32,000 bases of DNA from Candidatus Thorarchaeota archaeon (GTDB lineage Archaea; Asgardarchaeota; Thorarchaeia; Thorarchaeales; Thorarchaeaceae). Of the stretch, positions 2,061-31,991 are shown piece by piece. The stretch covers positions 150,001 to 182,000 of the forward strand of contig SHMX01000001.1 of assembly GCA_008080745.1 (NCBI GenBank). Reading direction: 5' to 3'. The notes under the pieces were generated by a model. The model was not told the origin of the DNA. It was given only the letters and a program-made list of their open reading frames with translations, and searched no databases. The translations under genes were made by a program, and so were the position numbers. Each line of letters begins with the position of its first letter. Positions within the stretch are counted from its first letter, which is position 1.

Positions 2061-2648
2061 TCACATTCTTTGAAGACTTCGAAGAAGAGCCTCATGTTCA
2101 TCTTTTTCGCTAACTGTGGGGTCCACGACCATTCCAGGCTCATGAGTTTCAATAAATACCTCCATCCCAGAATCCTTCACGCTGGCAAATCCGCTTGCAG
2201 ATAAGGAACGGATTCGTAATTGTGTGGTATTGAATTCTGTTTTCTCAGAAACTTCAACGGAAGGAGTATCTCGACGAAGCTTGCTCTTTGTGATTCTGAT
2301 TTGTTCTTTTAATTCTGCAACTTGTACCTGTAAATCTTTCCGGGATTGACGTTCTTCTTCTAGTTGCGATTTAATATCTTCGTACTCAACGCGTTCAATC
2401 AAATCCTTCTTAGGATCAAGCCATGTGACAGTTGTACCATTAAATCTGCGATTTGTTTCAACCAGATTCAATGCACGAAGCACAGCTAGAACATCATATA
2501 CTCTACGTTTTGGAGTATCAAGCTGCTCAGCTAAGATATCACTTCTAATTCCTTCTTCTCCCTGTTCTTTCAAGACTTTGACTGCTTCTTCTGCTAAATC
2601 AACCAGCTTCACAATTGCACCCCGGATATGTGCAAGAGGTAAATCCAC
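2061..2648 (-). CDS. E2F/DP-like winged-helix transcription factor with coiled coil
   Basis: LAEQLDTPKRRVYDVLAVLRALNLVE...VTW matches the E2F/DP DNA-binding signature (RRxYD, residues 48-52, nt 2493-2507). Heptad coiled coil at about residues 85-125. GTG start preceded by GGAAAGGTG. Confidence 0.8.
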   Translation of the reverse strand: MDLPLAHIRGAIVKLVDLAEEAVKVLKEQGEEGIRSDILAEQLDTPKRRVYDVLAVLRALNLVETNRRFNGTTVTWLDPKKDLIERVEYEDIKSQLEEERQSRKDLQVQVAELKEQIRITKSKLRRDTPSVEVSEKTEFNTTQLRIRSLSASGFASVKDSGMEVFIETHEPGMVVDPTVSEKDEHEALLRSLQRM

Positions 2649-5335: not shown

Positions 5336-6928
5336 TTAAGCGGGTTTGGGCCGAACGTCACATATCTCCATGAATTTCATTCCACCTGCTTTCTCTAATA
5401 GCTCCTCAAATGCAATGATGAAGACATTTGGAGTCACCTCTGTGGAATTCTTCGTTATTCTCTTAATTTCAAGAATCAGAGAGTCATAATTTGCTGTGAT
5501 GGGGCCTTTTGGTGCAACGTAGAGGTTAAGCACATCCATGCTGTAAGGATCAGACATATCTTCCTTTGCTACTTCCACCTGGATTTCTTCGACTTCTCCA
5601 AGTGAGAGAAGGTCTTCACGTAGAGCAGTCAGGTTCACGGTTGCACCCTTGATTTTCTTCTCCCTTAGACCCATGATGTCGATTTGAGCTTCAGCGTCAT
5701 TCTGTCGGCCGATATCCCAGAAGAAGGGACCATCAATACCGCAGAGTGGGCATGGTCCGTTCTCATGTCTTGAAGCTACATCTCCAAGCAGAAATCCTTC
5801 AAAGATTGTACCTGCACCATCCAGATGGAACAGAGTGACATGTCCAGATTCATCCTCATCGACGAAGTCATAGGTGCCATCATCATTCATTGCGATAAAT
5901 TCGAATGAAAGCATGAGGGGTGATACATTGTGGTAGGGCCCTCTATGGTCACATTGGACAGCAAAGGAAATCTTGCTCTCAGAAGATGCATATCCACCAA
6001 TGATTCTTACCTCCTTCGCACCTTTATCTTGAAGAGTCTGGGTAATATCCTGTGCAACCGGATCGTATATCTTTTCACCAGCAAGTAATACGACTACCTT
6101 CTCTGGAGCAGTATAATCCGACTCTTTCATAGCTCGGAAGAAACGATTACGGAGATAACTGGGCATTCCTGCAAAGCCGTTGGCCTTGAATGACTTTGCA
6201 ATCTCCACAAGTTTCTCGCTTGGAATTGCTCCACCTGCACTGGTTGCAATATAGAATTTGGACATTTGTTTTAATCCGAGATTGACAGCATGCCATCCGA
6301 GGTGGGGAGCGTAGGGAAAGAGGTTCATGCTAGATAGTTCCCAACCCGAATCAATCCAAGGATCTACCGCCATCTGTCCCACTTTAACACAATTCTTGAA
6401 CAACATTTCGTTGTCATAGCGTGTTAGGAATACGGGCGAAGGAAGACCTGAAGCTCTTCCAGAACTTAACCAAAATTGAAGAGGGGCATATCGATGCGTA
6501 AGATGGTTCTGCAAATTTTCCTTAGCAGAGTCAGCACCAAGATGTAACTTCACTCGAGCTCCATTATTTCGGATGAATTTGTATTCATCTGATTTCCCAG
6601 ATTTCTTAGTATATGTCATTAAATCCGAAACAATCTTCGCTGGATCGCGGTCCTTGCCATCCACCTGTGAGGGGTTTAATACGAACTGTGCGAGATTATC
6701 TTTGTATTCATGTTTTTTGACCAGAGGAATCTTGTACTTTGCCCAATCCTCTATGCAGGTTATATTGAAAGGATCAATATCATTCTCTTTGAATAACCTC
6801 CTATAATAGGGATGGTTCGGCCAGACCTGATATCTGATAAATGCCCTAAATTTCTGATCCTGCATTCTTTTAATCTCACGGTGGTTAGTCCGCTTCAATT
6901 CCTTGAATGTGAAAGTAGTCTTAGTCAA
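5336..6928 (-). CDS. Divergent phenylacetate-CoA ligase (PaaK)-like adenylate-forming enzyme
   Basis: N-terminal HPYYRRLFKENDIDP..I..IED..K.P+ motif; SSGRASG.P loop, GYASSE, LLGDV, IGRQND and IKGATVN at the expected ANL motif positions. TTG start with GAGGT SD. Confidence 0.8.
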   Translation of the reverse strand: MTKTTFTFKELKRTNHREIKRMQDQKFRAFIRYQVWPNHPYYRRLFKENDIDPFNITCIEDWAKYKIPLVKKHEYKDNLAQFVLNPSQVDGKDRDPAKIVSDLMTYTKKSGKSDEYKFIRNNGARVKLHLGADSAKENLQNHLTHRYAPLQFWLSSGRASGLPSPVFLTRYDNEMLFKNCVKVGQMAVDPWIDSGWELSSMNLFPYAPHLGWHAVNLGLKQMSKFYIATSAGGAIPSEKLVEIAKSFKANGFAGMPSYLRNRFFRAMKESDYTAPEKVVVLLAGEKIYDPVAQDITQTLQDKGAKEVRIIGGYASSESKISFAVQCDHRGPYHNVSPLMLSFEFIAMNDDGTYDFVDEDESGHVTLFHLDGAGTIFEGFLLGDVASRHENGPCPLCGIDGPFFWDIGRQNDAEAQIDIMGLREKKIKGATVNLTALREDLLSLGEVEEIQVEVAKEDMSDPYSMDVLNLYVAPKGPITANYDSLILEIKRITKNSTEVTPNVFIIAFEELLEKAGGMKFMEICDVRPKPA

Positions 6929-16918: not shown

Positions 16919-18586
16919 TCATGTGAAATCTACTTCTGGACCAATGTGAACGTACTTCATTCTGGTGAGCATCTCTGGGAAGTACTTACCACCAATTATT
17001 CCCGAGTCCTTATAGCCTCCAAGATGGGGCATATATGGGTCAAAATATAGATGATCTTGACCAAGAGTGACACCCGCTGCTTTTATTTTCTTAACCCACT
17101 TGTTTCGAATTTTTACATCGTCTGTAAAAATAGAGGAACGTAAGCCAAATCGAGATGCATTCGCTATCGAAATTGCTTCGTCAACACTGCTTACTTTCAT
17201 GACTGGTAGTGCAGGAGCGAAAACCTCCTCCTTCATTATTCGCATGTCCTGATTGACATTTGTTAGTACGGTAGGTTTGTAGAACATTCCTGCAGGGTCC
17301 TTTTCGTCAAGATAGTTACACCGAAATCCACCTGTTTCGATCTTTGCACCTTTCGCAACGGCATCTTCCATTTGATCGATTAAGATGTATAACGCAGTGA
17401 GTCCCACGGGAGGAAGACCCACCTTTGGATCAGAAGGACGACCCACTTGCAATTTCTCTGCTTCTTCAATAACTAAATCCAATAAATCATCATGGAGAGT
17501 ATCCTGAACAAGTAGCCGCTTAATTGCCATGCACGCCTGACCACTTCCCAGATATCTTCCCTTCACAATCATCTTTGCAGCAAATTCAAGGTCAACATCC
17601 GAACCCCAGACCAGACTAGCATCACTACCAGCGAGCTCTGGAGCCATCTGTATTCGTTTGCTGACAGCCTCAGACCATAACATCAATCCTGTATCACTAT
17701 CACCATACCAGACAATAGCACCAACTTGTGAATCGGACATGAACCGATTCATCATACGTTTTCCACCACCAGTGAGTAGTTGAAGCATTCCCGGTGGCAA
17801 ATCCATGTCCAAGAATTTCTTCATAAAGATGCGCCCAAGTAGAATGGTACTCAGGGGAACTTTACTAGGTGGCTTGAGAATGGTTGAATTCCCGGCAAGT
17901 ATCGAAGAAGTGATGCTTAGAATTCCAAGTGCCAAAGGAGAGTTGTATGGAGTGAATAGACATGATACTCCATAAGGTTCGCGGAACCGATAGTTCTTTC
18001 CTCCATCGCGTCCTGGGTCTTCATGGATATCCAGAGCAGTTCCCCATAGTTCAAAGGTTTCTCGTTCAAGATATTCGGTAAACATCTTCCAAGTCCATTC
18101 AAAGGTCTTGATAGGAACACCCTCTTTTACGGAGATTTCTCTAACTTTTTCAAATTCGTCTTTCACAGCCAAGCCAGCTTCATACAATGCATCAATGCGT
18201 TCATCTAAAGTCACACCCATATCGGGTCTTCTGAATGGGTTGAACAGAGCCTCGTGATCACGTGCTCCAGCTGCAATAGCCTCCGAAATATCAGACTCGC
18301 GAGAAAGAGCAACTTTTGCATAGATTATGTCATCCAGCTCATCATTACTATATTTAGGAATACCATGATGCTTACGATAATCCCGTAGATATCGCATCTC
18401 AGCTGTCTTCTTTGGAATTAGTCCTGGCGTACGTGAGAAAACGAAACGTTGACTTCTTGAAGCTGTACGCATCTGTAATGCAATTGCAAGACCAGGTTCC
18501 GTAATCACCTTGTCCATATCTGGAAAGAAGGTATACTTTCCAGTGTCTATTTCTTTTCCATCTACGAGTATAGGATGTGTATCCAT
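16919..18586 (-). CDS. Divergent aldehyde dehydrogenase family protein
   Basis: FTPYNSP, LKPPS, PELAGSD (catalytic Glu), GQACMA (catalytic Cys) and EEVFAP. Start at ATG 18586 or TTG 18658. Confidence 0.85.
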   Translation of the reverse strand: MDTHPILVDGKEIDTGKYTFFPDMDKVITEPGLAIALQMRTASRSQRFVFSRTPGLIPKKTAEMRYLRDYRKHHGIPKYSNDELDDIIYAKVALSRESDISEAIAAGARDHEALFNPFRRPDMGVTLDERIDALYEAGLAVKDEFEKVREISVKEGVPIKTFEWTWKMFTEYLERETFELWGTALDIHEDPGRDGGKNYRFREPYGVSCLFTPYNSPLALGILSITSSILAGNSTILKPPSKVPLSTILLGRIFMKKFLDMDLPPGMLQLLTGGGKRMMNRFMSDSQVGAIVWYGDSDTGLMLWSEAVSKRIQMAPELAGSDASLVWGSDVDLEFAAKMIVKGRYLGSGQACMAIKRLLVQDTLHDDLLDLVIEEAEKLQVGRPSDPKVGLPPVGLTALYILIDQMEDAVAKGAKIETGGFRCNYLDEKDPAGMFYKPTVLTNVNQDMRIMKEEVFAPALPVMKVSSVDEAISIANASRFGLRSSIFTDDVKIRNKWVKKIKAAGVTLGQDHLYFDPYMPHLGGYKDSGIIGGKYFPEMLTRMKYVHIGPEVDFT

Positions 18587-18678
18587 AGCAAAAGCCCCAT
18601 TCTGAGTGTGAAATTGTTGCCAATCGGCGTGTCTTATAGTTTTTCGGGAGAGTACCAAGTTAGGAGAAAAACGGGGAA

Positions 18679-19217: not shown

Positions 19218-20339
19218 TCACCGTCTGTATTTTGCAAGGTCGTAAGCCTCTTGGATAGGTGTACATCCACCACATCGATGACATCCTGCGGAGGTTTCTT
19301 TTGGATTCAAGCCCTTTTGAACCAGAAGTCTTCCAATTATCCTTACAAAATCAAGATACTTTTCCGATTCTTTGATATAAGAAGGGGTGAAATTAGCTAA
19401 CTGACTATTGGGAGCAGGCCGAATAGGAGCAACTACAGGTAAGATTCCTTTTGATATGATTTCTTCTAGCTTAGAAAGGGTCAGACTAAGATCTTCACCA
19501 AGTCCATACAATAGAAAGGTGCTTACATTTCCAGATCCGAAAAGATCCAATGCATATTCCCAAGATTCCATGTACATTTCAAACGAACCATAATCGGTCT
19601 TGCCTGGGCAGTATAATTCTCTTACATTTGGATCGACACTCTCAATGTGAATACCTACAGCATTCACTCCAGCATTATATACCTCGTAGATCTTTGCTGG
19701 ATCTACCGGAGGCTCAAATTGTACGCCAATTGGAATATCAGAAAAATCTCTAATTGTTTTCACAATCCTAACAAGTCTGTCAATTCCAACATCTTGTGAG
19801 TCAGGTGTTCCAGTTGTCAAAAGTACATCTTTCACCACACCCTCATCGAGACCTGCTTGCAGAACTTCTACAAATTGCTCAGGAGATTTCTCCAAGAGTG
19901 CGTCTTGTGTCTGATGAGAATGTGGAATGGTGCAGAATTTGCATTGTTGTCCGGTGAGCCAATATCTGCAATGTTGATACACCGTTGTTGCAAGAGTTTC
20001 CTTACCGTGTAGAAGGGCAATTTTTTGGTATGGAATACCATCCTCGGTCGTCAAATCATAGAATGCAGGTTTCGGAACAAGATCGAGTGGAATAGAATGG
20101 TCGTAAAGCCAAATCCCAGCTTCATCGGTTGGTCGCAAATCTGCAGAATGGAATCTTTCAGCCATTTCACCCTGTCGTATTGGTACACCTACAGGACGAT
20201 TATTGGGAAGTAAGAAGTATCTGCCACCTACTGGTCCAGCACCCCCTTTTCGACCCGGATATTCAGACTCGGGTATACGAGCACCTTCGGTGAGTAGTTT
20301 CACCTTTAGTCGGAATATCTCTTCTAGATTCATTCTCAT
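19218..20339 (-). CDS. Radical SAM protein, MSMEG_0568-like family
   Basis: KIALLHGKETLATTVYQHCRYWLTGQQCKFC (extended Cx8Cx2C), VLLTTGT, GIHIES and C-terminal AGCHRCGGC auxiliary cluster motif. Confidence 0.85.
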   Translation of the reverse strand: MRMNLEEIFRLKVKLLTEGARIPESEYPGRKGGAGPVGGRYFLLPNNRPVGVPIRQGEMAERFHSADLRPTDEAGIWLYDHSIPLDLVPKPAFYDLTTEDGIPYQKIALLHGKETLATTVYQHCRYWLTGQQCKFCTIPHSHQTQDALLEKSPEQFVEVLQAGLDEGVVKDVLLTTGTPDSQDVGIDRLVRIVKTIRDFSDIPIGVQFEPPVDPAKIYEVYNAGVNAVGIHIESVDPNVRELYCPGKTDYGSFEMYMESWEYALDLFGSGNVSTFLLYGLGEDLSLTLSKLEEIISKGILPVVAPIRPAPNSQLANFTPSYIKESEKYLDFVRIIGRLLVQKGLNPKETSAGCHRCGGCTPIQEAYDLAKYRR

Positions 20340-20373: not shown

Positions 20374-21480
20374 TCAGTTAACGTCTTTTGTATACTTATC
20401 AACAAATTCCACTAAATCAAGCACCTCAATTTCATCCCCTGCTTGTTGTTTTAGTAGATTTTTACAAAATGGACAGGTGCTAAGAAGTAATTTAGAGCCA
20501 GTCCGGAGTGCTTGTTCGATACGTTCTCGTCCAATCTTCTTTGATGCATCTGGATACATCAACCTTAGCCCAGCCCCATTTCCACAACACATCGCATTTT
20601 CTCGATTGCGTTCCATTTCACTAGGAGGAATTCCCGATATGGATTCAATCACTCTACGGGGTTCATCATAGACATTGCAATGACGGCCAAGATGACAAGG
20701 ATCATGATAGGTTACCTGAATTGATGGATCTGTTTCACCCAGACCATCCCGATGCATATCCAGAAATTGGCTAATATGGTAGATAGGTTTGGTAATTTCC
20801 AACCCGTGTTTTGGATAGTCTATGGTAAGAGCACGAAGACAGCCGGGACAGGAAACAACTATTTTCTCTGCCGAATGAGCATTAAGAATTTCGACATTAT
20901 GATTGGCTTGTTCTAAAGCAGCTTCTAGAGAGCCGGTTCTGAATAATGGCGAGGCACAACACCACTCATCTTCTAACAAAGCTACTTTGAAACCAAGCCG
21001 TGAGAGTACATTGATGGTTGAGTTAGCAATCTCCTCCTCCTGATAAGCAGAAGTACAACCAGTAAAGTAGACAATATCAGGATTTTTCGATGTGGGTAAT
21101 TCCAACTTTTCTAGTCTTTTTGAGTGGGGTTCATCGAATGGGTTGTGATTTGATCTCACAATGGATACCAAGTCTTTGATAGCGGTAGGCTGACGACCTT
21201 CCTCAGCAAGTTCGGTTCTTCTAGATTCTACAATAGAAGCTATGTCAATCTCTGGTTTGCACCAAGTTAGACAATGACTACATTCCAGACACTGATACAG
21301 AACCTGAATCGCCCGTTCGTCGAGCTCACGTACGCCTTTAATTTCCTGATGGAGTAGGAGTGCTCTTCCGTGGGGAGTTGGGGCATCAGATCGCCATGCA
21401 AAAAAGGTTGGACAAACATGTCTGCACATTTTAGGACATGCCGCACACATCCGCACATCAGAGGCCATTTCATCATTCAT
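20374..21480 (-). CDS. Fe-S oxidoreductase with two CCG domains (GlcF/GlpC/HdrD-like)
   Basis: CAACPKMCRHVCP and CLECSHCLTWC ferredoxin-like motifs; YFTGC...WCCAS...VSCPGC; YHDPCHLGR...CCGNG...STCPFC. Confidence 0.9.
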   Translation of the reverse strand: MNDEMASDVRMCAACPKMCRHVCPTFFAWRSDAPTPHGRALLLHQEIKGVRELDERAIQVLYQCLECSHCLTWCKPEIDIASIVESRRTELAEEGRQPTAIKDLVSIVRSNHNPFDEPHSKRLEKLELPTSKNPDIVYFTGCTSAYQEEEIANSTINVLSRLGFKVALLEDEWCCASPLFRTGSLEAALEQANHNVEILNAHSAEKIVVSCPGCLRALTIDYPKHGLEITKPIYHISQFLDMHRDGLGETDPSIQVTYHDPCHLGRHCNVYDEPRRVIESISGIPPSEMERNRENAMCCGNGAGLRLMYPDASKKIGRERIEQALRTGSKLLLSTCPFCKNLLKQQAGDEIEVLDLVEFVDKYTKDVN

Positions 21481-22907
21481 TATTTTCGCACCTCCAAACC
21501 TAATTTTCCAGGATTCATAATCCCATTGGGATCGAGTTTCTCCTTTATACTCTTTAAGACTGAAAACGCAGATTCCAGTTCGTCAACAACATATGTGCTT
21601 CTAGAAAGTCCGACTCCATGCTGATGGGACATTGTACCACCCTCTTTTAGACATGCAGCAACCCCATCATCCCAGATTTTTTTATAGGTTGCCCAGGCAC
21701 TTTCTGCATCGGGCTGAGCAGTAAAGAAAATCATGTATATACTCCCACCATTGGGATACATATGTGAGAAGTGGGATAGCACAACTGCTTCATGTGCTTC
21801 CATAGCAGATTTCATAGAATGATAGACATTCTCCAATTTGTCATATGTTGCAACCACATCAATGGTGTCACCAATGGCATATCCTGAAGTTGTGAAGGGA
21901 CTTGGATAGTACATATCAAATCGATGATTCCACCATCTCTCTGCAGGTCCTGCCCCAAAGTCATTTCCACCTTCTGCAATGCATATTTCCATAACGGTTG
22001 CCTCATCTAAATCATTTTTGGAAGTAGACCCATCAAAGGCTAACATAAGCATACAATCCCCCTCTGCTACATCAAAATGAGTACTAACACTAAAAGCTGT
22101 ATCTTCAGGATCATATAATCTAATAATTGAAGGACTAATTCCTGCACGGAATATCTTTCTAATAATTTCTAATCCCGTTGAAACATCTTTTACGCTGACA
22201 CTACGAAAACGTCTCTCTTCAGGCAGAGGAAAAATTCTGAGTGTTGCCTTTGTAATAACACCCAAAGTACCTTCAGAACCAATGAATAACTGACGTAAAT
22301 CAGGACCAACAGAATGACGGGGCACGGGTTTGCAGAATATCACTTCACCACTAGGTAAAACAAATTCCAATCCCAAGGTCAAATCCTCAATTTTTCCATA
22401 TAATGAGGACATAGATCCACCAGACCGAGTTGCGATAAATCCACCAATATTGGATGATCTGACTGAGGTGGGTGTATGACCAGATGTGTACCCATGACGA
22501 TTCAAATACTCCTCCAAATCTACCCCTACAACCCCAGCCTCTACATGGACCATCATAGAGGTCTCATCAATTTCGAGTATCTTGTCAAATCGTTTCATGT
22601 CTAGTTGAATTCCACCGTAAATAGCAAGGGTGCCACCACAGGTTCCAGCACCACCACCAACAGGGATAACCGGAATTAAGAACTTGTTAGCAATTTTAAG
22701 AATCTCAGATACCTCTCTGGTAGTTGATGGAAAGACAATAATATCAGCAAGAGGCAACAACTCCCCAGCTCGAATTTTTGCCTCACTGAGAGGCCAAGCA
22801 TCATGTGCATTGAGGACTTTATCGGTCTGTTGCACAGTGACATAATCAGATCCAAGTAGAGTATGTAATTTTTCTACTAACTCTCCAAACTTATCAGAAT
22901 CAATCAT
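21480..22907 (-). CDS. FAD-linked oxidase of the VAO/PCMH family, alkyl-DHAP synthase-like
   Basis: PVGGGAG, IGGFIATRSGGSMSSLYGKIEDL, FIGSEGTLGVIT, SHMYPNGGSIY, SHQHGVG and LDPNGIMNPGKL. Confidence 0.85.
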   Translation of the reverse strand: MIDSDKFGELVEKLHTLLGSDYVTVQQTDKVLNAHDAWPLSEAKIRAGELLPLADIIVFPSTTREVSEILKIANKFLIPVIPVGGGAGTCGGTLAIYGGIQLDMKRFDKILEIDETSMMVHVEAGVVGVDLEEYLNRHGYTSGHTPTSVRSSNIGGFIATRSGGSMSSLYGKIEDLTLGLEFVLPSGEVIFCKPVPRHSVGPDLRQLFIGSEGTLGVITKATLRIFPLPEERRFRSVSVKDVSTGLEIIRKIFRAGISPSIIRLYDPEDTAFSVSTHFDVAEGDCMLMLAFDGSTSKNDLDEATVMEICIAEGGNDFGAGPAERWWNHRFDMYYPSPFTTSGYAIGDTIDVVATYDKLENVYHSMKSAMEAHEAVVLSHFSHMYPNGGSIYMIFFTAQPDAESAWATYKKIWDDGVAACLKEGGTMSHQHGVGLSRSTYVVDELESAFSVLKSIKEKLDPNGIMNPGKLGLEVRK

Positions 22908-22913
22908 AACATT

Positions 22914-24143
22914 TCACTCCATAGAGAGATGGGTTGCGATAAACACGGTCAAATCATCAACATCGATAGGAATACCACTTCGATAGAGATTATCTTCTAA
23001 TGTTGCAGTACATAATGGACAGGGAGTCACAACTCGCGATGCAGATGTAGCATCTATTGCCGCAAGATTAATCCCAACAACTGATTTTGCAACACTTGGT
23101 GCATGATATGCAACCATTCCACCACCACCGCAACAAGAATCTCTAGCAGAAGAAGTAATAACTTCAACATTTGGAATAGCTTGCAGAATTTCCACGGCAT
23201 AATCCAATATCTGTCGAGAGGTGTGCTTGATAAGATGGCAGGGCTCATGAATAGTGATTTTTGTTGCGGATGTGTCTGATGCCATTTCTGCTTGGAGTCT
23301 GTCGATACCGATGTGTTCAATAAGATATTCAATCATATGATAGATAGGAATATCCCAGTTATCTCGTACTGCTATATCACTAATATTGGAAGTACAGCCA
23401 GCACAAGTTGTAACCAACATTTTTACTCCAAGAGATTTTATTTTCTCCTTCAGGGATGTATTCAACTCTCTAGCAGTCTTCTCATCACCAATTAAGCGAG
23501 CAGGCAGTCCACAACAGCTCAATTCATCAAGGACTGCAAAGTTCACATCAAATCGTTTTAGAATTACTTTTGCGGCTTCTTTAACTTCCTGAGCCATTTC
23601 TTCTGCTTGACAACCAGGATAAAATAAAACATCAGCACTTTCTTTGCTCTCAATATCAACTAGAGGTAGACCCAACCGTTCCAATCTCATATCACGGCTA
23701 TCAATCTTATCTTCAGGATCATCCCAAGGTGCAAATGCTTTCTCATGTGCATGAATGGTTTCTAGTACTTTGTGTAATTCTTTTGGAACAAGATCAGGAC
23801 GGTGTTCGAAAATTCTAGCTCGAATCATATTGACAATCTCAGGGATATTGACGGATTGCGGACAGACTTCTCTACAGGTTCCACAGCCCGTACAAAGATA
23901 GACCTTGTCACCAGTGGTCCAGAATTCAGGAGGGGAGCGGCTTAGCTCAACTGCAATGCTACGAGGACCACTAAATTGATCAACTCCTACTCCAGCCACA
24001 ACAGGACAGTGATTAATGCAAATCCCACAATTTATGCACTGTTCAATGGACTTGATTATTTCCAATTCATCCTCTTTGTAAGGAATGATTCTTTCTTCTT
24101 TCAGGGTTCCCTTAACAAATTCATAAGCTTCTTCTTCGCTCAT
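22914..24143 (-). CDS. glpC: Anaerobic glycerol-3-phosphate dehydrogenase subunit C-like Fe-S/CCG protein
   Basis: CINCGICINHCP and CTGCGTCREVCP 4Fe-4S motifs plus two CCG domains; directly follows glpAB. Confidence 0.75.
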   Translation of the reverse strand: MSEEEAYEFVKGTLKEERIIPYKEDELEIIKSIEQCINCGICINHCPVVAGVGVDQFSGPRSIAVELSRSPPEFWTTGDKVYLCTGCGTCREVCPQSVNIPEIVNMIRARIFEHRPDLVPKELHKVLETIHAHEKAFAPWDDPEDKIDSRDMRLERLGLPLVDIESKESADVLFYPGCQAEEMAQEVKEAAKVILKRFDVNFAVLDELSCCGLPARLIGDEKTARELNTSLKEKIKSLGVKMLVTTCAGCTSNISDIAVRDNWDIPIYHMIEYLIEHIGIDRLQAEMASDTSATKITIHEPCHLIKHTSRQILDYAVEILQAIPNVEVITSSARDSCCGGGGMVAYHAPSVAKSVVGINLAAIDATSASRVVTPCPLCTATLEDNLYRSGIPIDVDDLTVFIATHLSME

Positions 24144-25511
24144 TTAGAGTTCCTCCTTGATATATTTCATAGCGTTTAATCCGGTAGTATAACCTGTAGT
24201 GAGACCTACACCCAAACCACTCTTTTCAACGAGATAATTATATCCGGCTAGAACGGAACCCGCAGCAAAGACATTCTCATATACTACTTGAGAATCGTAA
24301 TTGATAGGCCTGAAGTATCTATCAACTGGAACACCCACACTGAAAACAGCGTGACCTTCGTATTGCACATTAACCCGATCGGTTAACTTCTGAGGTCTCA
24401 AATCATCCGTTGGATTATAGTTCAGATCTACAGTGTCTAGATTAAAAATAGATTCTTTGAAGCCACTCTCTGTTCCTTTAATTCCCCCACCTATGAATTT
24501 CCCAGTCGCAAGTATTGTTGAGGTAGCAGATATTTTCATCTTTCTATGGGGACTTTTCGCAATAATCCGACTCACTCTATCATCAGCTGAATCATATCCT
24601 ACAACCTCATGACCAACAATCATCTGTCCTCCAGATTCTAGATACATAGCATCCAGTGATTGTTGGAGTCGCATTCCAGGTACTGACGGTGGAAAAGAAA
24701 GAACCTCAAACGGATGTACGCCAAGTTCAGCTATTTCTTGTAAGACAGTATTGGCGGATTCAATGCCCATGACAGGAGGTAGAGCCACATGTGTTGCACC
24801 AGTATTTTCAATGTTCTTTCTCAGCTCAGAGAGGGCCTCCTTAGGTAGTCCTGAATGATCAAGATGACGGGCAACCTCAACAGATGAAATGTTGTAAGGT
24901 TTGCCAAACGGAGTTATTGTTATTGAACAGCTTGATACTCTCTTGACAGGTTTATCCGCGTACCTCTGAAATTCTGCATAAGTCCGTGCAGCAAGCCTAC
25001 CATTGAAATCAGGATGCCCCACTATGTCAACGAAGAGGAGATTGCTATCGTCATGATCCTTTACAAGATTCCCCATATCCATCGTCTTCTGGACAAAGCA
25101 TGTGGGTTTTGTTGTACCTAGAACCGTTATTGCCTCCATGGCTTGGTCCAAAGCCCCAGTAAACTCAGCACATAAACCATCCAGGTTCCTCTGTAACCAT
25201 TTCACAGAATCTTTGACCCTCTGAACAATTAATTCAGTGTGGACTTCTCGATTGTTCTCTGAAATACCCAAAATGACATAGGGATGGGTAGATCGAATCA
25301 CTCCAGTAGTAGACAAGGCATCAATAGGACTCAGAGGGAATTGACTCTCAACAAGATTTCCTAGAATATCAATAGCACCCGATGAGTAGGACGTTGCTCC
25401 TCGACCTTTCCTGATCAAGATAGTTTTTAGACCCGATTCAGAAGCGATAGTTCCTGCAACGAGACCAGCAATACCACCGCCAATAACAGCTAAATCATAT
25501 TCGTGTTCCAT
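24144..25511 (-). CDS. glpB: Anaerobic glycerol-3-phosphate dehydrogenase subunit B
   Basis: VIGGGIAG, SSGAIDILG, FPPSVPGMRL, LATGKFIGGGI, NVFAAGSVLAGY and SGLGVGLTTG. Confidence 0.9.
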   Translation of the reverse strand: MEHEYDLAVIGGGIAGLVAGTIASESGLKTILIRKGRGATSYSSGAIDILGNLVESQFPLSPIDALSTTGVIRSTHPYVILGISENNREVHTELIVQRVKDSVKWLQRNLDGLCAEFTGALDQAMEAITVLGTTKPTCFVQKTMDMGNLVKDHDDSNLLFVDIVGHPDFNGRLAARTYAEFQRYADKPVKRVSSCSITITPFGKPYNISSVEVARHLDHSGLPKEALSELRKNIENTGATHVALPPVMGIESANTVLQEIAELGVHPFEVLSFPPSVPGMRLQQSLDAMYLESGGQMIVGHEVVGYDSADDRVSRIIAKSPHRKMKISATSTILATGKFIGGGIKGTESGFKESIFNLDTVDLNYNPTDDLRPQKLTDRVNVQYEGHAVFSVGVPVDRYFRPINYDSQVVYENVFAAGSVLAGYNYLVEKSGLGVGLTTGYTTGLNAMKYIKEEL

Positions 25512-25512
25512 T

Positions 25513-27174
25513 CTACGACCAATCCTCCCATGGCTTACGAGTATAGACAGACCCGAGGGTCAGATCAAGATTTCCAACGCAGGCGTACATTCCCTGAGCG
25601 ACCTCTTCCTGAATGATCTGTTCCCGTCTGAAGGAGGGGCGTTTCCCTTTCCATCGCTCTGAAAGAAAATCAAGTATATCCAACTGGAAATCATGCCCAC
25701 TTAGCTCCCGTTCGTCTGCTAAGATAGCAGCAGCTTTATACGTGCAAAAAGTTGCTTGGCAAGGGCCAGTACCCAGTCTAACTCGACGACGTAAATCGTT
25801 GAGAGTCTGGGGAAACTCGTGTCTTATGCTGTATCGAATTTCAGCCTCTATCACAGGTTCACAGGTACAGATTGTTGTCTTCCAGTCGGGGTGATCTTTT
25901 GTCAGTTCCAAAATCATTCTTGTTTCAGTTCCGCGTCTAGCCCTCAAACGCTCTACAGCATGTTGTGATATATCGAACTCTTTAGCAAGAGCAAGAACAT
26001 CCACATCATCTTCGTTGCCTGGTAATGGTTCCAGATGAGTTTTGCATTCAGTTTCAACTCTCAACATTTCTGCGGCTAGATCAGTGGCTGCTTCAGCCAT
26101 ATGTCTGCACATTACCAGTTTTCCACCGGTGAAGCTGATAAGACCTTTAATATTCTGTGAAGAATGATCAATTATCTCGTAGCCACGGGTGACTTTTCCC
26201 TCAGGAATCTTCCAATCTGCAACGAGAGGCCGGACTCCTTCCATTGTCCGAATTATTCGAGCATCACGAATAGAGGGAATAACCCATTCCATACTCTGCA
26301 GCAAGTATTCTATCTCATCGTGACTTGCGGTAAGGGTGTCTGGGTCCTCCCAAGTATCAATAGCAGTTGTTCCAAGAAGAGTGGTATTTTCATGAGGAAA
26401 AAGATAGATCATCCGTCCGTCAACAGCTTTCGCAATGACGCCCACATTGACTACTCTTCGGTCTAAAATTACATGTGCACCCTTGTTCAGACGTAAATCA
26501 ACCTTGGCTTCAGCAAATTTAGCAACTTTTGATGCCCAGGGACCAGCTGCATTGATGACAATATGTGTTGAAACCCGTTTTTCTTCACGCGTAATCCTAT
26601 TGAAATAGACAACTCCAACAATCTTCCCGTCTTTAACATCAATATCTACCAGCTCACAATACGTTTTGACATCAGCACCATGATTCTTCGCATCTAGTGC
26701 TTGCAAGATACATAAACGAAAAGGATCTATGAAGTATTCTTCAAAATATAACGATGCAATAATTTCCGGATTTAGAGATGGTTCAATCTCACGAGAGTCT
26801 TCAGGAGTGAGAAACAACACAGGAGGAACATCTCGTGATTCCGCCCGTTTAGAATATTCCTCTGCAAAATTCCCTCCACTTGAGAGGTCACTCATCTCAA
26901 GCATAGGAGTCAGTATGGGGTTTTTCATAATGATATGGCGAGCAATCCGAAGAAAGTGGACTACCTCATCAGAACACATATCGACAATTTCAGGTTCATC
27001 CATGTATTTCAGACCGGAGGATATCATTCCCGCACAGGTGCCAACTGTTGCAGAAGCAATATCATCTCGTTCTAGAAGCAATGTACGAAGACCTCTCATT
27101 GCACAGTCACGGGCGACAGCTGTACCAGTGCTACCAGCACCAATGACTACAACATCATAATCAGCCATTTTCAC
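25513..27174 (-). CDS. glpA: Anaerobic glycerol-3-phosphate dehydrogenase subunit A
   Basis: VVIGAGSTG..ARDCAMRG, INAAGPWA, KGAH, GVRPL, GGKL; C-terminal BFD-like CTCE...RRRVRLGTGPCQATFC. Confidence 0.92.
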   Translation of the reverse strand: MKMADYDVVVIGAGSTGTAVARDCAMRGLRTLLLERDDIASATVGTCAGMISSGLKYMDEPEIVDMCSDEVVHFLRIARHIIMKNPILTPMLEMSDLSSGGNFAEEYSKRAESRDVPPVLFLTPEDSREIEPSLNPEIIASLYFEEYFIDPFRLCILQALDAKNHGADVKTYCELVDIDVKDGKIVGVVYFNRITREEKRVSTHIVINAAGPWASKVAKFAEAKVDLRLNKGAHVILDRRVVNVGVIAKAVDGRMIYLFPHENTTLLGTTAIDTWEDPDTLTASHDEIEYLLQSMEWVIPSIRDARIIRTMEGVRPLVADWKIPEGKVTRGYEIIDHSSQNIKGLISFTGGKLVMCRHMAEAATDLAAEMLRVETECKTHLEPLPGNEDDVDVLALAKEFDISQHAVERLRARRGTETRMILELTKDHPDWKTTICTCEPVIEAEIRYSIRHEFPQTLNDLRRRVRLGTGPCQATFCTYKAAAILADERELSGHDFQLDILDFLSERWKGKRPSFRREQIIQEEVAQGMYACVGNLDLTLGSVYTRKPWEDWS

Positions 27175-27380
27175 TAGGGCTCCCTTTGTATATTACACTT
27201 TGATTTAGGGGAATTATGGGATAAGACTTTGGAAATAATACAAGCTTTTCGTTTATTATATGAGGAAAGACTTTATTGGGATTAATTCTGCGAATCATGT
27301 AGGTATTCAGTCTATCTAGTATCCAAGCGAGCTATATAGATAAGGAGACTACCAAATTAATGAAAATATTGGTGAAATTA

Positions 27381-27626
27381 ATGCCAACATACAACTTAGG
27401 TACGCTAAATATTGTATCACACGATGCATCAAAACTAACCGAGGCTATTGGTATTCCTGAGCATCGGTTTGACGACTTGGTTCAACTTGCACGTGCAGCA
27501 TGGGACTATGAGGATACTATCTCAGAAAGTATTGAATATGTAGCCCAGCGAGTAACTGGTTCTGAAGCAGTACTTGCTCTTATTATTCTTGGTAGAATCT
27601 GGGAGCAGAATTCTGATAGTAAGTAA
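27381..27626 (+). CDS. Small hypothetical protein
   Basis: 81 aa from ATG 27381 with a GGTGA SD; helical, no recognised motif. Confidence 0.65.
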   Translation: MPTYNLGTLNIVSHDASKLTEAIGIPEHRFDDLVQLARAAWDYEDTISESIEYVAQRVTGSEAVLALIILGRIWEQNSDSK

Positions 27627-27637
27627 TATGCCACTTG

Positions 27638-27677
27638 TGACTCATGGTCCTCGGTAATCGAGGACCTTTCAGAGTCA
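27638..27677. terminator. Hairpin between convergent genes
   Basis: GGTCCTCG-gtaat-CGAGGACC (27646-27666), extended by TGACTC/GAGTCA. Confidence 0.5.
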
Positions 27678-27687
27678 GGTATTTTTT

Positions 27688-29142
27688 CTAGGAGGTTAGC
27701 TCGATGATATCGGCCATCTCTGCTAACATGAGTTTGTTAAATATCCCAAACTGTTTTTCATAAATCGCTACATTTTCTGGAATTGGTTCTCGGCGTTCCT
27801 CAATTCTGAGCATATTGGAAGCCGCTTCTTCATAAGACCCATAGACACCAGTACCGATAGTACCCAGAATAGCCGCGCCAATTACGGTTGAGTCTCGAGA
27901 TCTAGGTAGTAGGACGGTCTTATTGGTACAATCCGCCATGATTTGACGCCATAATGAAGAGTTGGCCCCACCACCGTCAATACGCATCTCGTTAAATTCT
28001 ATATCAAGAATACCCTCCATCATCTGTACATACATGTTGATACTGTAACCATTTGCTTCCATTATTGCTCTAGCAATATGGGCTCGAGTATGTTGGAAAC
28101 CAACATTATAGAAAATTCCCTTGTTATATGCCATAAAGGGAAAAATCACAAGGCCGTCACTTCCTGCTGGAACCTCTCTTGCAGAGCGTTCCATGAGGTC
28201 ATATGCAGCCGCATCACTTTGTGCTGCCATCATTTTTTCTGGTTCACAGTAGTTATCCCTATACCATCGGTAAGCTAATCCTGTACCTGGGGTAACGCCC
28301 TCTAAAATCCATTTTCCTGGAATTGCAGAGGGATTCGAGAACATTACATAGGGATCTTCGATGTGTTCCTCTGTATGTGTAATTACAAATGTACCAGTAC
28401 CAGTTGTGGCTTTCAAGACGCCTTTCTTAATCGTCCCAGTGCCCAGAGCAGAACACTGCTGGTCTCCACTGCCCATAATAACGAGCGTACCCTTTCGCAG
28501 AGATGTTCGTTTTGCGGCTTCAGCAGTAATACCTCCAATTGTAGTCCCGGGAGGTTTAATCTCTGCTAGATTATCGATGGGAATCCCAGTCTGTTCACAT
28601 AATTCTTCGGACCATTTGAGTGTTTCATGATCAATGGGTCCATAACGCGCATTGGACGGTTCACTTACCATTTCACCACACAATCGATAATTCAGATATG
28701 CATCAAGATGGATGAATTTGTATGCGCGGCTAAATAACTGTGGACGGTTTTCTTTGAACCACATTATTTTATTGACACTCTTCCGAGGGCCAATATCTTC
28801 AGCCATTTCTTTTGCAGTCTCAGTAGACCGGTTATCCACCCACGTTACAGTGGGGGCGAGAGGTTTTCCTTCTTTATCAACAGGGGTGACACAATCCCGA
28901 GTGGTTGCTAAAACGACACCCACAATGCCCTCAGCAGAACCAAATTCCGAAATGGCTCTCTGCATAGTATTGCATGCAGTACGCCAATAGGTTTCAGCAA
29001 GCTCTTCATGAATTTTTATATCGCGAGGTTTTTGGGGATATTCTTCATATGCTTTGGATAATTCCCGACCCTCTTCATCCACCACCACTGATCTAGTACC
29101 AGTGGTTCCAACATCAAATATTGCAAATAATCTCTGACTCAT
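27688..29142 (-). CDS. FGGY-family carbohydrate kinase (glycerol/xylulose kinase-like)
   Basis: DVGTTGTRS, TWVDNRS, GDQQCSALG, TGTGTF and DGGGANSSLWRQIMAD. Confidence 0.9.
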   Translation of the reverse strand: MSQRLFAIFDVGTTGTRSVVVDEEGRELSKAYEEYPQKPRDIKIHEELAETYWRTACNTMQRAISEFGSAEGIVGVVLATTRDCVTPVDKEGKPLAPTVTWVDNRSTETAKEMAEDIGPRKSVNKIMWFKENRPQLFSRAYKFIHLDAYLNYRLCGEMVSEPSNARYGPIDHETLKWSEELCEQTGIPIDNLAEIKPPGTTIGGITAEAAKRTSLRKGTLVIMGSGDQQCSALGTGTIKKGVLKATTGTGTFVITHTEEHIEDPYVMFSNPSAIPGKWILEGVTPGTGLAYRWYRDNYCEPEKMMAAQSDAAAYDLMERSAREVPAGSDGLVIFPFMAYNKGIFYNVGFQHTRAHIARAIMEANGYSINMYVQMMEGILDIEFNEMRIDGGGANSSLWRQIMADCTNKTVLLPRSRDSTVIGAAILGTIGTGVYGSYEEAASNMLRIEERREPIPENVAIYEKQFGIFNKLMLAEMADIIELTS

Positions 29143-29238
29143 TAATAGCACCAAATGTCATTATGGGAGTGTTTTTGATAGGATGTCCTAAGATATGAAT
29201 TGTGTGGAAAAACAAGTAGCTGAATATATGAGGTAACT

Positions 29239-30177
29239 ATGATGTCAGAATACCCAGTTTTCAAGAAAATTTCACCCCATGTATATCTAATAAGGGGTGA
29301 AAACAAATCTAGATTTCCAGAGGCCAATTCAGTTCTAATTGATGATGAAATTCTGACACTAGTTGATGCTGGCTCTAATTTATCACATATTGAGCAGACA
29401 CTCCGAAGCCTTCAGCATCAAATAGAAGATATAGAGCAGATTGTATTGACTCATTTCCATATTGATCACAAAGGTTATGCACAGCAGATTTTAGAACGAG
29501 CTGATTGTGAGGTCATGTGTCATCCTGCTGGAAAAGAGGCGGTCGAAACATTTGAAGGAATGATGCGATATTATGGTGTGGAAAACCATCAATATCGGTC
29601 ATACTGGGAAAATATTTTGGAAGAATGGCTTCCACATGTCAAGAGTAGTTACAAGATAACAGACTACTTGAAAGAGGGCAGGGAGATCGACTGTGGTGAA
29701 ACTAGTCTGGTGCCAATTCATACGCCTGGACACACTCCAGATCATACATGCATCGGTATCAATGGTACAGAAACAATTCTCTTAGTTGATATTGATCTCA
29801 CAAGATTCGGTCCTTGGTATGGAAATAAGGTTAGCGTCATAGATGAATTCAAAGAATCGGTGCGAAAAGTCATCAATCTACAACCCAAAATAGGTATTAG
29901 CAGCCATCTTCTGAATCCAGTTGAGGATGCTCTGCAGGAAAGACTAGAAGAATTCTACACTGTTTTCAATCAACGCGAAAAGAGAATTATCGAGAACATA
30001 AAGAACGGACTGGATACTGTAGGGAAACTATCCAAAGCTCCAACAATATACCCAAGAATACCTCTTGATCTTTTTTTGATTTTTGAAGAATTTATGGTGC
30101 GAAAACATGTAGATCAACTAAAATCTAAAGGTATAATCAGACAGGAAGAAGAAAAACTAATGATAGAAAGAAAATGA
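29239..30177 (+). CDS. Metallo-beta-lactamase-fold hydrolase
   Basis: LVDAG, THFHIDHKG (HxHxDH) and HTPGHTPDH; C-terminal helical/wHTH-like extension. Confidence 0.9.
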   Translation: MMSEYPVFKKISPHVYLIRGENKSRFPEANSVLIDDEILTLVDAGSNLSHIEQTLRSLQHQIEDIEQIVLTHFHIDHKGYAQQILERADCEVMCHPAGKEAVETFEGMMRYYGVENHQYRSYWENILEEWLPHVKSSYKITDYLKEGREIDCGETSLVPIHTPGHTPDHTCIGINGTETILLVDIDLTRFGPWYGNKVSVIDEFKESVRKVINLQPKIGISSHLLNPVEDALQERLEEFYTVFNQREKRIIENIKNGLDTVGKLSKAPTIYPRIPLDLFLIFEEFMVRKHVDQLKSKGIIRQEEEKLMIERK

Positions 30178-30195
30178 GAGGCCATGATGGCCTCT
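30177..30195. terminator. Hairpin between convergent genes
   Basis: AGAGGCCA-tga-TGGCCTCT followed by TTGT. Confidence 0.45.
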
Positions 30196-30203
30196 TTGTG
30201 CGT

Positions 30204-30989
30204 CTATTTGTGTTTGAAAGACGGTTCGCGTTTCGCTAAGAAAGCATCAACACCTTCTTGTTTGTCTTCAGTGTTAAAGACTGCTGAAAACTGTCTGACT
30301 TCGAATTCGAGATTCTTTTCCAAGGTCATTTCAAACGCATTATTGAGAGACTCTTTAGCAAGTCTAATAGCCACACCAGGTTTTGCTGCGAGATTGGTAG
30401 CGAGTTGTTTCGTTCCTTCCATTAGCTCTTCTACGGAAACAAACATTCTATTGATAAGCCCTATTCTAAGTGCTTCTTCAGCTTTGATTTGATCACCAGT
30501 ATAGACCAGCTCCTTTGCAATTCCCATTCCAACAATTCTTGGGAGTCTAACGGTTCCACCAAAACCAGGAATAATACCCAGATTTATCTCAGGTTGTCCA
30601 AAGCGCGCGTTAGTAGAGGCATACCGAATATCACAAGCCATTGCGATTTCACAGCCACCACCGAGAGCGAAACCATTCACTGCAGCTATAACGGGTTTAC
30701 TCATCGATTCAATGAACTTACAGAGATTTTGACCATTCTCCGCAAGTGGCAAAACAGTATTGCCATCCTTGTCCTGAAACTCCCCGATATCCGCACCTGC
30801 TGCAAATGCCTTCTCACCAGCACCTGTCAAGATTATAACACGTACATCTTGGTCATCTTCAGCTTTATTGAATGCCTCATGTAGTGATTTAACTACCTCA
30901 CTATTCAATGCATTGTACTTTTTTGGTCGGTTAATAGTTATTGTTGCTATACTACTATCGACACTATAGAGAACTACTTCTTCAGACAT
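30204..30989 (-). CDS. Enoyl-CoA hydratase / crotonase
   Basis: INRPKKYNALN, AFAAGADI, AVNGFALGGGCE, FGQPEINLGIIPGFGGT (both catalytic Glu). ATG 30989 follows a GGAG SD. Confidence 0.95.
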   Translation of the reverse strand: MSEEVVLYSVDSSIATITINRPKKYNALNSEVVKSLHEAFNKAEDDQDVRVIILTGAGEKAFAAGADIGEFQDKDGNTVLPLAENGQNLCKFIESMSKPVIAAVNGFALGGGCEIAMACDIRYASTNARFGQPEINLGIIPGFGGTVRLPRIVGMGIAKELVYTGDQIKAEEALRIGLINRMFVSVEELMEGTKQLATNLAAKPGVAIRLAKESLNNAFEMTLEKNLEFEVRQFSAVFNTEDKQEGVDAFLAKREPSFKHK

Positions 30990-31165
30990 GGTATACTCCA
31001 CTCCGGGATGATGCAAAAAATCGGGGGGAGCTTGGTAATAAGGCTTCGGAGGAAGGAAAAATCATATTTTAGAGATTGAAATCAGAACAACGAATCTTTA
31101 TCAATCAGATTCATACTAATTATACTAATTCGCTGAGGGACCGGCGAACGAACGGGGACCTAAAC

Positions 31166-31483
31166 TTGATAGAAGAGAAGGTTAGTTATGTATGTAAAGA
31201 GTCGCTTATTGCGATGAAAAGTTCACTGCAAAATTCCTATGCCTTTGACATGGCAATTTTTGATCAGAGAGAGTTTCTAAAAATTTGGACGTATCATTCT
31301 AACGATGGTAGAAGACGTCTGAAGGACATTATCGATGTTATTGATGTTGCTCTGCAAAAACTGAACTATTGCGACAGTAAAAAAGCCTCGAGAATTTACC
31401 TAGACACGCTAAAGGGTGTAGCTCTTGTGCAAAAATGGACAAGGATTCTGGAAAAAGCATCTCTTACCACTTCAAAGAATTAG
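31166..31483 (+). CDS. Hypothetical protein, tandem paralog 1
   Basis: Aligns by eye with the next ORF (KESLIAMKSSL / KDSLLAMKNSL). TTG 31166 chosen because it aligns with the paralog's start. Confidence 0.65.
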   Translation: MIEEKVSYVCKESLIAMKSSLQNSYAFDMAIFDQREFLKIWTYHSNDGRRRLKDIIDVIDVALQKLNYCDSKKASRIYLDTLKGVALVQKWTRILEKASLTTSKN

Positions 31484-31613: not shown

Positions 31614-31991
31614 GTGGAACTAGCTGACAAACGCCATGTCTGGAAGGATTCACTCTTAGCAATGAAAAATTCCTTGATGACAACATACGAAATGATCACA
31701 TCGATAGAAGAGGAACGCTCCCTGATTCGTGCCCTCACTGGAAATGGATATGACTACATTAAATTTTCAGGATATCGAAGAAATGAAGGGTTCAGAAGAT
31801 ATACTGATGTTGCAGAGATTATTGATAATGCAATAATGGAAATTGAAGCAAGCACACTCCAACAAGCATCAATGATTTATCTTCGTACACTTCGCTCAGT
31901 GGCTCTACTTTCTAAATGGGCAAAAGTTCTAGAAGAGAGTTCAAATGGTTTTGATTTTCTACAAGCAGACTTTAGCACATATCAAAGATAA
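31614..31991 (+). CDS. Hypothetical protein, tandem paralog 2
   Basis: GTG start with GAGGGG SD; shares AS.IYL.TL..VAL..KW..+LE..S with the preceding ORF. Confidence 0.7.
   Translation: MELADKRHVWKDSLLAMKNSLMTTYEMITSIEEERSLIRALTGNGYDYIKFSGYRRNEGFRRYTDVAEIIDNAIMEIEASTLQQASMIYLRTLRSVALLSKWAKVLEESSNGFDFLQADFSTYQR

Follow-up and report, generated by a model that had tools for sequence, protein, structure and literature searches.

Which reaction would an archaeon carry out with a relative of alkyldihydroxyacetonephosphate synthase (ADPS, also named AGPS) that is encoded beside a glycerol 3-phosphate (G3P) dehydrogenase and a kinase? The question arises from a 32,000-nucleotide stretch of a Candidatus Thorarchaeota genome (contig SHMX01000001.1, positions 150,001 to 182,000; hereafter the window), which lies on contig C1 of the assembly named G000 here (3.16 Mb, 98% complete). 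On its minus strand, a variant FGGY kinase gene lies upstream of glpA, glpB, glpC, the gene of an ADPS-like flavoprotein and that of an iron-sulfur protein with Fer4 and CCG domains. An earlier interpretation made without database searches (the sequence-only reading) had proposed that these enzymes scavenge 1-O-alkyl lipids based on G3P. Our analyses indicate that the cluster is real and widespread and represents a variant, so far uncharacterised, of an enzyme family already known. We lean towards the view that its core would be a three-step catabolic redox module oxidising a small substituted dihydroxyacetone phosphate (DHAP) at C1. When re-measured, the gaps glpA-glpB, glpB-glpC, glpC-flavoprotein and flavoprotein-CCG were 1, 0, 6 and -1 nt, with strands and open reading frames (ORFs) as first described. 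Pfam and NCBIfam searches also returned the families first named (GlpA-like, GlpB, two Fer4+CCG proteins, FAD oxidase, FGGY kinase, MBL-fold hydrolase and enoyl-CoA hydratase).

The flavoprotein (21480..22907, minus strand, 475 aa, domains FAD_binding_4 and FAD-oxidase_C) is a compact member of the ADPS family and not a GlcD- or Dld-type enzyme, as judged by profile, fold and tree. Its top matches in the Protein Data Bank (PDB) were the ADPS of Dictyostelium (204 bits) and of guinea pig (200 bits), followed by LctD (158 bits), and a profile of 126 sequences scored 433 bits for ADPS versus 281 for D-lactate dehydrogenase. The structural model (pLDDT 95) matched the fold of AGPS with a TM-score of 0.90, compared to 0.85 for LDHD. 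A phylogenetic tree was computed with E. coli GlcD, YgcU and a Streptomyces homologue as markers, while nine divergent or partial rows and the eukaryotic ADPS stayed outside it. In this tree, a branch with an SH-aLRT support of 100 parted the HxH-type proteins from the EHG-type GlcD enzymes, including the Asgard EHG paralogues, which formed a separate clade. The phylogeny that had been suggested as a check thus showed no clustering with the EHG-type 2-hydroxyacid dehydrogenases. The deep branches within the ADPS-like clade were not resolved and we therefore make no claim about origin or transfer; a plasmalogen preprint likewise describes too little phylogenetic signal in AGPS. The flavoprotein contained neither the EHG nor the GHxGDGN metal-binding motif, and its best NCBIfam match, GlcD TIGR00387, reached 209 bits against a cut-off of 568. 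Together with the separate clade, these data led us to reject membership in the GlcD/Dld group.

The active site combined conserved and altered positions. Both motifs on which the ADPS comparison had initially been built, SHMYPNGGSIY and SHQHGVG, were present, starting at residues 381 and 427, respectively. In the PDB alignments, H144, R263, Y391, H428 and H430 corresponded to ADPS H300, R419, Y578, H615 and H617, and two of these retained positions are marked by the ADPS mutants Arg419His and Tyr578Phe deposited in the PDB. The position of ADPS His616 was occupied by Gln (Q429), resulting in an HQH sequence in the window protein and in 120 out of 120 close homologues; the complete HHH loop (His615-617), absent from the window protein, was present in most other Asgard orthologues. 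In addition, the cap insertion that follows R263 was about 22 residues shorter (13 versus 36 residues in the guinea pig comparison and 8 versus 30 in that with Dictyostelium), Ser336 stood at the position of ADPS Arg515 and the corresponding stretch, a helix in ADPS, was broken by prolines. We take the cap insertion and the Arg515 helix region of ADPS to shape the lipid site and the membrane face.

The gene that follows the flavoprotein (20374..21480, minus strand) encodes a 368-aa protein with Fer4 and CCG domains. Such a gene was located directly after the flavoprotein in 37 out of the 37 Asgard loci in which this neighbour was visible, a Bacillota protein (P0143/P0284) presented both as a fusion, and electron-transfer flavoprotein (ETF) genes adjoined the homologues of E. 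coli and Ilyobacter. A model of the flavoprotein-CCG complex scored 0.93, while the best of three controls scored 0.00; at least 96% of the contacts agreed between runs and the pLDDT of the partner was at least 91. The mark used for these models was reached by 58 out of 80 solved pairs and by 2 out of 110 mismatched pairs. In the model, the ferredoxin-like domain of the CCG protein packed against the FAD domain, supporting that the CCG protein binds the flavoprotein and is probably its own redox partner, that is, a dedicated electron-transfer subunit. The exchange catalysed by ADPS is redox-neutral and leaves the redox state of the substrate unchanged (PMC13019191). Because of the invariant CCG gene, the Bacillota fusion and the complex model, the flavoprotein is most likely a dehydrogenase, of which it would be the catalytic subunit, and not a synthase. 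The sequence-only reading had allowed the ADPS-like enzyme to act by exchange and had missed the probable role of the partner.

Regarding the kinase (27688..29154, likely start at 29142, minus strand; Pfam FGGY_N/C), the comparison with GlpK revealed a modified substrate pocket. The GlpK signature consists of Arg83, Glu84, Tyr135, Asp245 and Phe270 (PMC3245297), and the cluster kinase read R-D-(loop deleted)-D-F instead of R-E-Y-D-F. It also fell below all NCBIfam cut-offs, including that of TIGR01311 (161 bits, cut-off 590). Cluster kinases kept the R, D and F residues as well as W103 and Q246, carried Asp, Ala or Gly at the E84 position and, in most orthologues, lacked 13 residues across the Y135 loop. 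On contig C5 of G000 (L117:8138-10938), a paralogue with the R-E-Y-D-F signature was found, which scored above the XylB cut-off and under that of GlpK. This paralogue lay tail to tail with a gene for a LarA N-terminal-domain protein, a pair also seen in genome G025. In two other Asgard genomes (G030 and G040), an R-E-Y-D-F kinase headed its own glpK-glpABC operon, apart from the cluster; the GlpA of this operon shared about 40% identity with that of E. coli. Kinase and flavoprotein occurred together in 30 out of 41 genomes, whose relatedness makes these counts not independent; ten genomes had neither and one, at a contig end, only the kinase. A fold search placed LsrK first, followed by GntK, XylB and GlpK, and did not indicate a substrate; the plasmid and atlas searches gave no substrate clue. 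The open pocket suggested by the alignments would suit an O-linked group and an extended carbon chain alike.

The dehydrogenase genes had the order and domains of GlpABC, with a GlpA-like FAD dehydrogenase carrying DAO and BFD [2Fe-2S] domains (25513..27174; TIGR03377, 410 bits, cut-off 553), a GlpB subunit (24144..25511; TIGR03378, 220 bits, cut-off 174) and a GlpC-like subunit with intact 2x[4Fe-4S] and CCG motifs (22914..24143; Pfam Fer4_8 and CCG), all on the minus strand. Their identities to the E. coli subunits were 33, 26 and 24%, respectively. The conserved His of the GlpA motif LLHSGARY was replaced by Ser in 12 out of 12 Asgard cluster GlpAs examined, while the bacterial cluster GlpAs retained it; in the window GlpA, Ser was found at His55 and Lys at Arg59 of the E. 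coli protein. In GlpO-type enzymes, His51 of M. pneumoniae GlpO is the proposed base (PMC10726252), and the GlpA motif His appears equivalent to it according to the alignment column. The His-to-Ser change could thus reflect a different base, substrate or stereochemistry. Since both the kinase and GlpA deviate from the glycerol-type signatures and G030 and G040 keep a separate canonical operon, the enzymes probably act on a modified and not on plain glycerol. The loss of E84 and Y135, the Ser substitution and these parallel operons agree with the initial expectation that kinase and GlpA act beyond free glycerol.

The flavoprotein was detected in 86 out of 151 sampled Asgard genomes and in many bacteria. 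Its homologues adjoined G3P dehydrogenases of three kinds (GlpABC, GlpD and DAO-BFD/PyrRedox/DUF1667), a recurrence suggesting that the substrate is DHAP-like. Other homologues adjoined a short-chain dehydrogenase/reductase (SDR) or a glycerol dehydrogenase together with a kinase, one was fused to a PfkB kinase, and a Bacillota genome carried the same five genes. Sugar-type ABC or MFS transporters and LacI regulators often stood beside compact bacterial homologues. These neighbours and the compactness of the enzyme are the reasons to propose a small substrate. A diacylglycerol (DAG) kinase context was seen for one long-insert and one compact homologue, and a lipid branch within the family is plausible. 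Many of the top relatives (P0121, P0242 and similar proteins of 750-1000 aa) had two FAD-binding domains per chain, and at locus L123 two FAD-binding-domain genes preceded a CCG gene in a GlcD-GlcE-GlcF-like arrangement.

Going beyond the observed gene families, gene order, residues and co-occurrence and the modelled flavoprotein-CCG contact, we infer the direction, the order of steps, the substrate class and all of the chemistry as follows. The substrate would be a small, probably water-soluble glycerol with an extra group (X) at C1. The variant FGGY kinase would phosphorylate its free primary hydroxyl, and the variant GlpABC, or another type of G3P dehydrogenase in other lineages, would then oxidise C2, so that a glycerone phosphate bearing X (X-DHAP) results; either order of these steps would lead to a ketone phosphate. 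The flavoprotein would bind the DHAP part as ADPS does, take the C1 proton and end with a reduced FAD, to be re-oxidised by the bound Fer4/CCG subunit. If X were O-linked, X-OH and an oxidised C3 phosphate would be released, an oxidative ether cleavage to which we assign about half of the weight of this reading. If X were C-linked, as in tetritol- or pentitol-type compounds, the reaction would be a plain alpha-ketol oxidation.

Several observations argue against this proposal. The cluster GlpAB was the only G3P dehydrogenase found in G000, and GlpABC may for that reason also act on plain G3P. In four out of the seven first-examined Asgard genomes outside Thorarchaeia, kinase, flavoprotein and CCG protein were present and GlpB was not found with the window query. 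The deletion in the kinase could accommodate either a small group or a long chain, and the DAG kinase beside one compact homologue fits a lipid. A close homologue (P0271) had neither kinase nor G3P dehydrogenase within its available DNA. Finally, the good score of the complex model may be an echo of GlcD/GlcF-type pairs.

An alternative that we consider unlikely is the anaerobic scavenging of long-chain 1-O-alkylglycerols, in which kinase and GlpABC would give alkyl-DHAP, the ADPS-like/CCG pair would free the fatty alcohol and beta-oxidation would use the chain. ADPS does bind long-chain acyl- and alkyl-DHAP (PMC7827237), the GlpK residues for C2 and C3 are retained in the kinase, whose pocket is open at Glu84 and Tyr135, and a non-hydrolysable bond would account for such an elaborate route. 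Some bacterial homologues adjoin a DAG kinase and GlpD or GlpAB, and in P. aeruginosa a related operon shares its regulation with phospholipase C (PMC8151288). On the other hand, the flavoprotein lacks the cap residues, the Arg515 and the unbroken helix of ADPS, a tblastn search of G000 found no DAG kinase ortholog (one weak Pfam match lay elsewhere) and FGGY kinases of known function act on C3-C7 sugars and polyols.

The neighbouring genes did not help this alternative either. A co-oriented aldehyde dehydrogenase (ALDH; 16919..18658, minus strand, Pfam Aldedh), an MBL-fold hydrolase (29239..30177, plus strand) and an enoyl-CoA hydratase (ECH; 30204..30989, minus strand) flank the core. A beta-oxidation block (thiolase/DUF35, 3HCDH) that continues past the window has the ECH at its border. 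However, the housekeeping neighbours NOL1, PDCD5, TatD and PAC2, taken as controls, were about as conserved beside the cluster in Thorarchaeia as ALDH and ECH. ALDH was missing from three Thorarchaeia loci, its linkage is not specific, and ALDH, ECH and MBL were not found in any of the 17 Asgard loci outside Thorarchaeia; thiolase, ACAD, DAG kinase and acyltransferase were not found in the ten of those loci that were queried. The adjacency of ALDH, ECH and MBL is therefore ordinary gene-order conservation, and the neighbours were rejected as lipid evidence. The synteny survey that had been suggested as a test thus confirmed the flavoprotein-CCG pair throughout the Asgard loci and limited the lipid-type neighbours to Thorarchaeia, so that the proposed handling of the alkyl chain by ALDH and beta-oxidation lost its basis. 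A membrane ether lipid is a possible substrate that these data do not support.

Improbable, in our view, is a plain glycerol route, in which G3P would be converted to DHAP by GlpABC, and this unmodified DHAP would then be oxidised at C1 by the flavoprotein with its CCG partner. It is consistent with the cluster GlpAB being the sole G3P dehydrogenase found in G000, with a Microbacterium homologue linked to genes annotated glpK and glpD, and with the D-2-hydroxyacid dehydrogenase genes near several homologues. Against it, the linked kinase is not of the GlpK type, a paralogue with the canonical signature exists and two operons occur in parallel in G030 and G040. Besides, DHAP already feeds into glycolysis.

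It is very improbable that the flavoprotein is a genuine alkyl-DHAP synthase with which this Asgard archaeon would produce ether lipids of the G3P type, and we rejected this reading. The equivalents of R419, Y578, H615, H617 and H300 are retained and many orthologues have been named alkyldihydroxyacetonephosphate synthase by JGI. Nevertheless, PF01553 (PlsB/C), PF02660 (PlsY), PF02504 (PlsX) and GpsA were not found in the 98% complete G000, in agreement with the initial view that synthesis is the less likely direction. The presence of G1PDH-like and GGGPS genes is likewise as anticipated for a host with lipids based on glycerol 1-phosphate. A redox-neutral exchange needs no iron-sulfur partner, and His616 is Gln in all of the close homologues. 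Furthermore, the Streptomyces homologue, located beside an acyltransferase and an SDR with no annotated Fe-S neighbour, scored 387 bits to ADPS versus 204 for the window protein; a search from this homologue returned only actinobacterial relatives among the matches listed. If the flavoprotein were simply a 2-hydroxyacid dehydrogenase of the GlcD/GlcF type located next to a glycerol operon, this would fit the fold, the flavoprotein-plus-CCG layout and the best NCBIfam match, but it is scarcely credible given the missing EHG and GHxGDGN motifs and the separate clade of the Asgard EHG paralogues.

The linkage itself is already known in bacteria, as the sequence-only reading had suspected, and the five-gene Bacillota locus is a further case. 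In P. aeruginosa, PA3026-PA3023 (GliR regulon, PMC8151288) is described as encoding a putative alkyl-DHAP-forming oxidoreductase, a G3P dehydrogenase and a carbohydrate kinase; it differs in its GlpD-type dehydrogenase, its DAG kinase and in that no CCG subunit is described. Its deletion had no phenotype and its authors proposed synthesis (PMC8151288). The E. coli ygc cluster (YgcU, YgcE, YgcW, YgcQR, YgcNO, YgcP) contains an FGGY kinase in which the loop is deleted in a comparable way, with flavoprotein carriers nearby, and YgcU, which has the HHH loop, is 32% identical to the window protein. It has an SDR in place of GlpABC, ETF/Fix-type carriers in place of the CCG protein, and MFS transporters. 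The canonical GlpABC plus GlpK system shares gene order and domains and differs at GlpA His55 and Arg59 and at kinase E84 and Y135. GlcD/GlcF and LctD-type enzymes share the electron-transfer architecture of flavoprotein plus CCG and differ in active-site motifs and tree position. Compared to ADPS itself (EC 2.5.1.26; PDB 2uuu and 4bby; 584-658 aa), the flavoprotein has the same VAO/PCMH fold and the five catalytic equivalents listed above, with a shorter cap and the H616-to-Q and R515-to-S changes; unlike ADPS, it has a dedicated Fer4/CCG partner, a kinase and a G3P dehydrogenase as neighbours, and no acyltransferase was found. Neither the archaeal cluster nor YgcU was the subject of any study found in a literature search.

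Altogether, the ADPS family seems to include an extensive branch of dehydrogenases that is still uncharacterised. Automatic annotation often calls the flavoprotein an ether-lipid synthase, probably incorrectly, and this name could lead discussions of bacterial-type lipids in Asgard archaea astray. With low confidence, we further suggest that the ADPS-like/CCG pair may be an oxygen-independent glyceryl-ether lyase-dehydrogenase that, with the kinase and GlpABC, breaks monoalkylglycerol ethers in Asgard archaea and many anaerobic bacteria of anoxic sediments. The only known ether cleavage of monoalkylglycerol is that by the O2-dependent AGMO (PMC7911779). If true, eukaryotic ADPS would have catabolic, redox-active relatives, and cleavage without oxygen would fill a gap in the degradation of ether compounds in sediments.

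The gene order kinase-glpABC-flavoprotein-CCG-radical SAM-GNAT-ALDH, with MBL and ECH upstream, was highly conserved in Thorarchaeia, the group to which the MBL and ECH linkages were limited. At the window locus, 513 nt separate the end of the kinase gene from glpA and contain an opposite-strand ORF of about 90-100 aa, and co-transcription of kinase and glpA is therefore not evident. This small conserved ORF (27324..27626, plus strand, no NCBIfam match), which lies outside the core, had copies 52-93% identical in many Thorarchaeia loci and was missing in several; in six relatives lacking it, the kinase ended at most 100 nt from the glpA ORF. Downstream of the CCG gene, the run extends through the radical SAM-like, GNAT and ALDH genes with gaps of 34, 50 and 20 nt. 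The radical SAM-like protein (19218..20339, minus strand), MSMEG_0568-like and just under the cut-off, combines a non-canonical CX8CX2C motif with a CxxCxxC at its C-terminus; its gene always directly follows the CCG gene in Thorarchaeia, the only group in which the linkage was seen.

Other observations concerned the rest of the window and the genome. Five contigs of G000 (C14, C15, C17, C18 and C19) had a GC content of 62-65%, compared to about 41% elsewhere, and are probably bin contamination. The ORF at 5336-6928 (minus strand) encodes a 530-aa protein with a weak likeness to PaaK/FlxY-type acyl-CoA ligases, far under the cut-offs. Two adjacent look-alike small ORFs, 31076-31483 and 31614-31991 (both plus strand), had no NCBIfam match; relatives appear to hold one copy at this site, suggesting a local duplication. 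The ORF at 2061-2648 (minus strand) had, by eye, a putative E2F/DP-type winged helix in its N-terminal half followed by a coiled coil.

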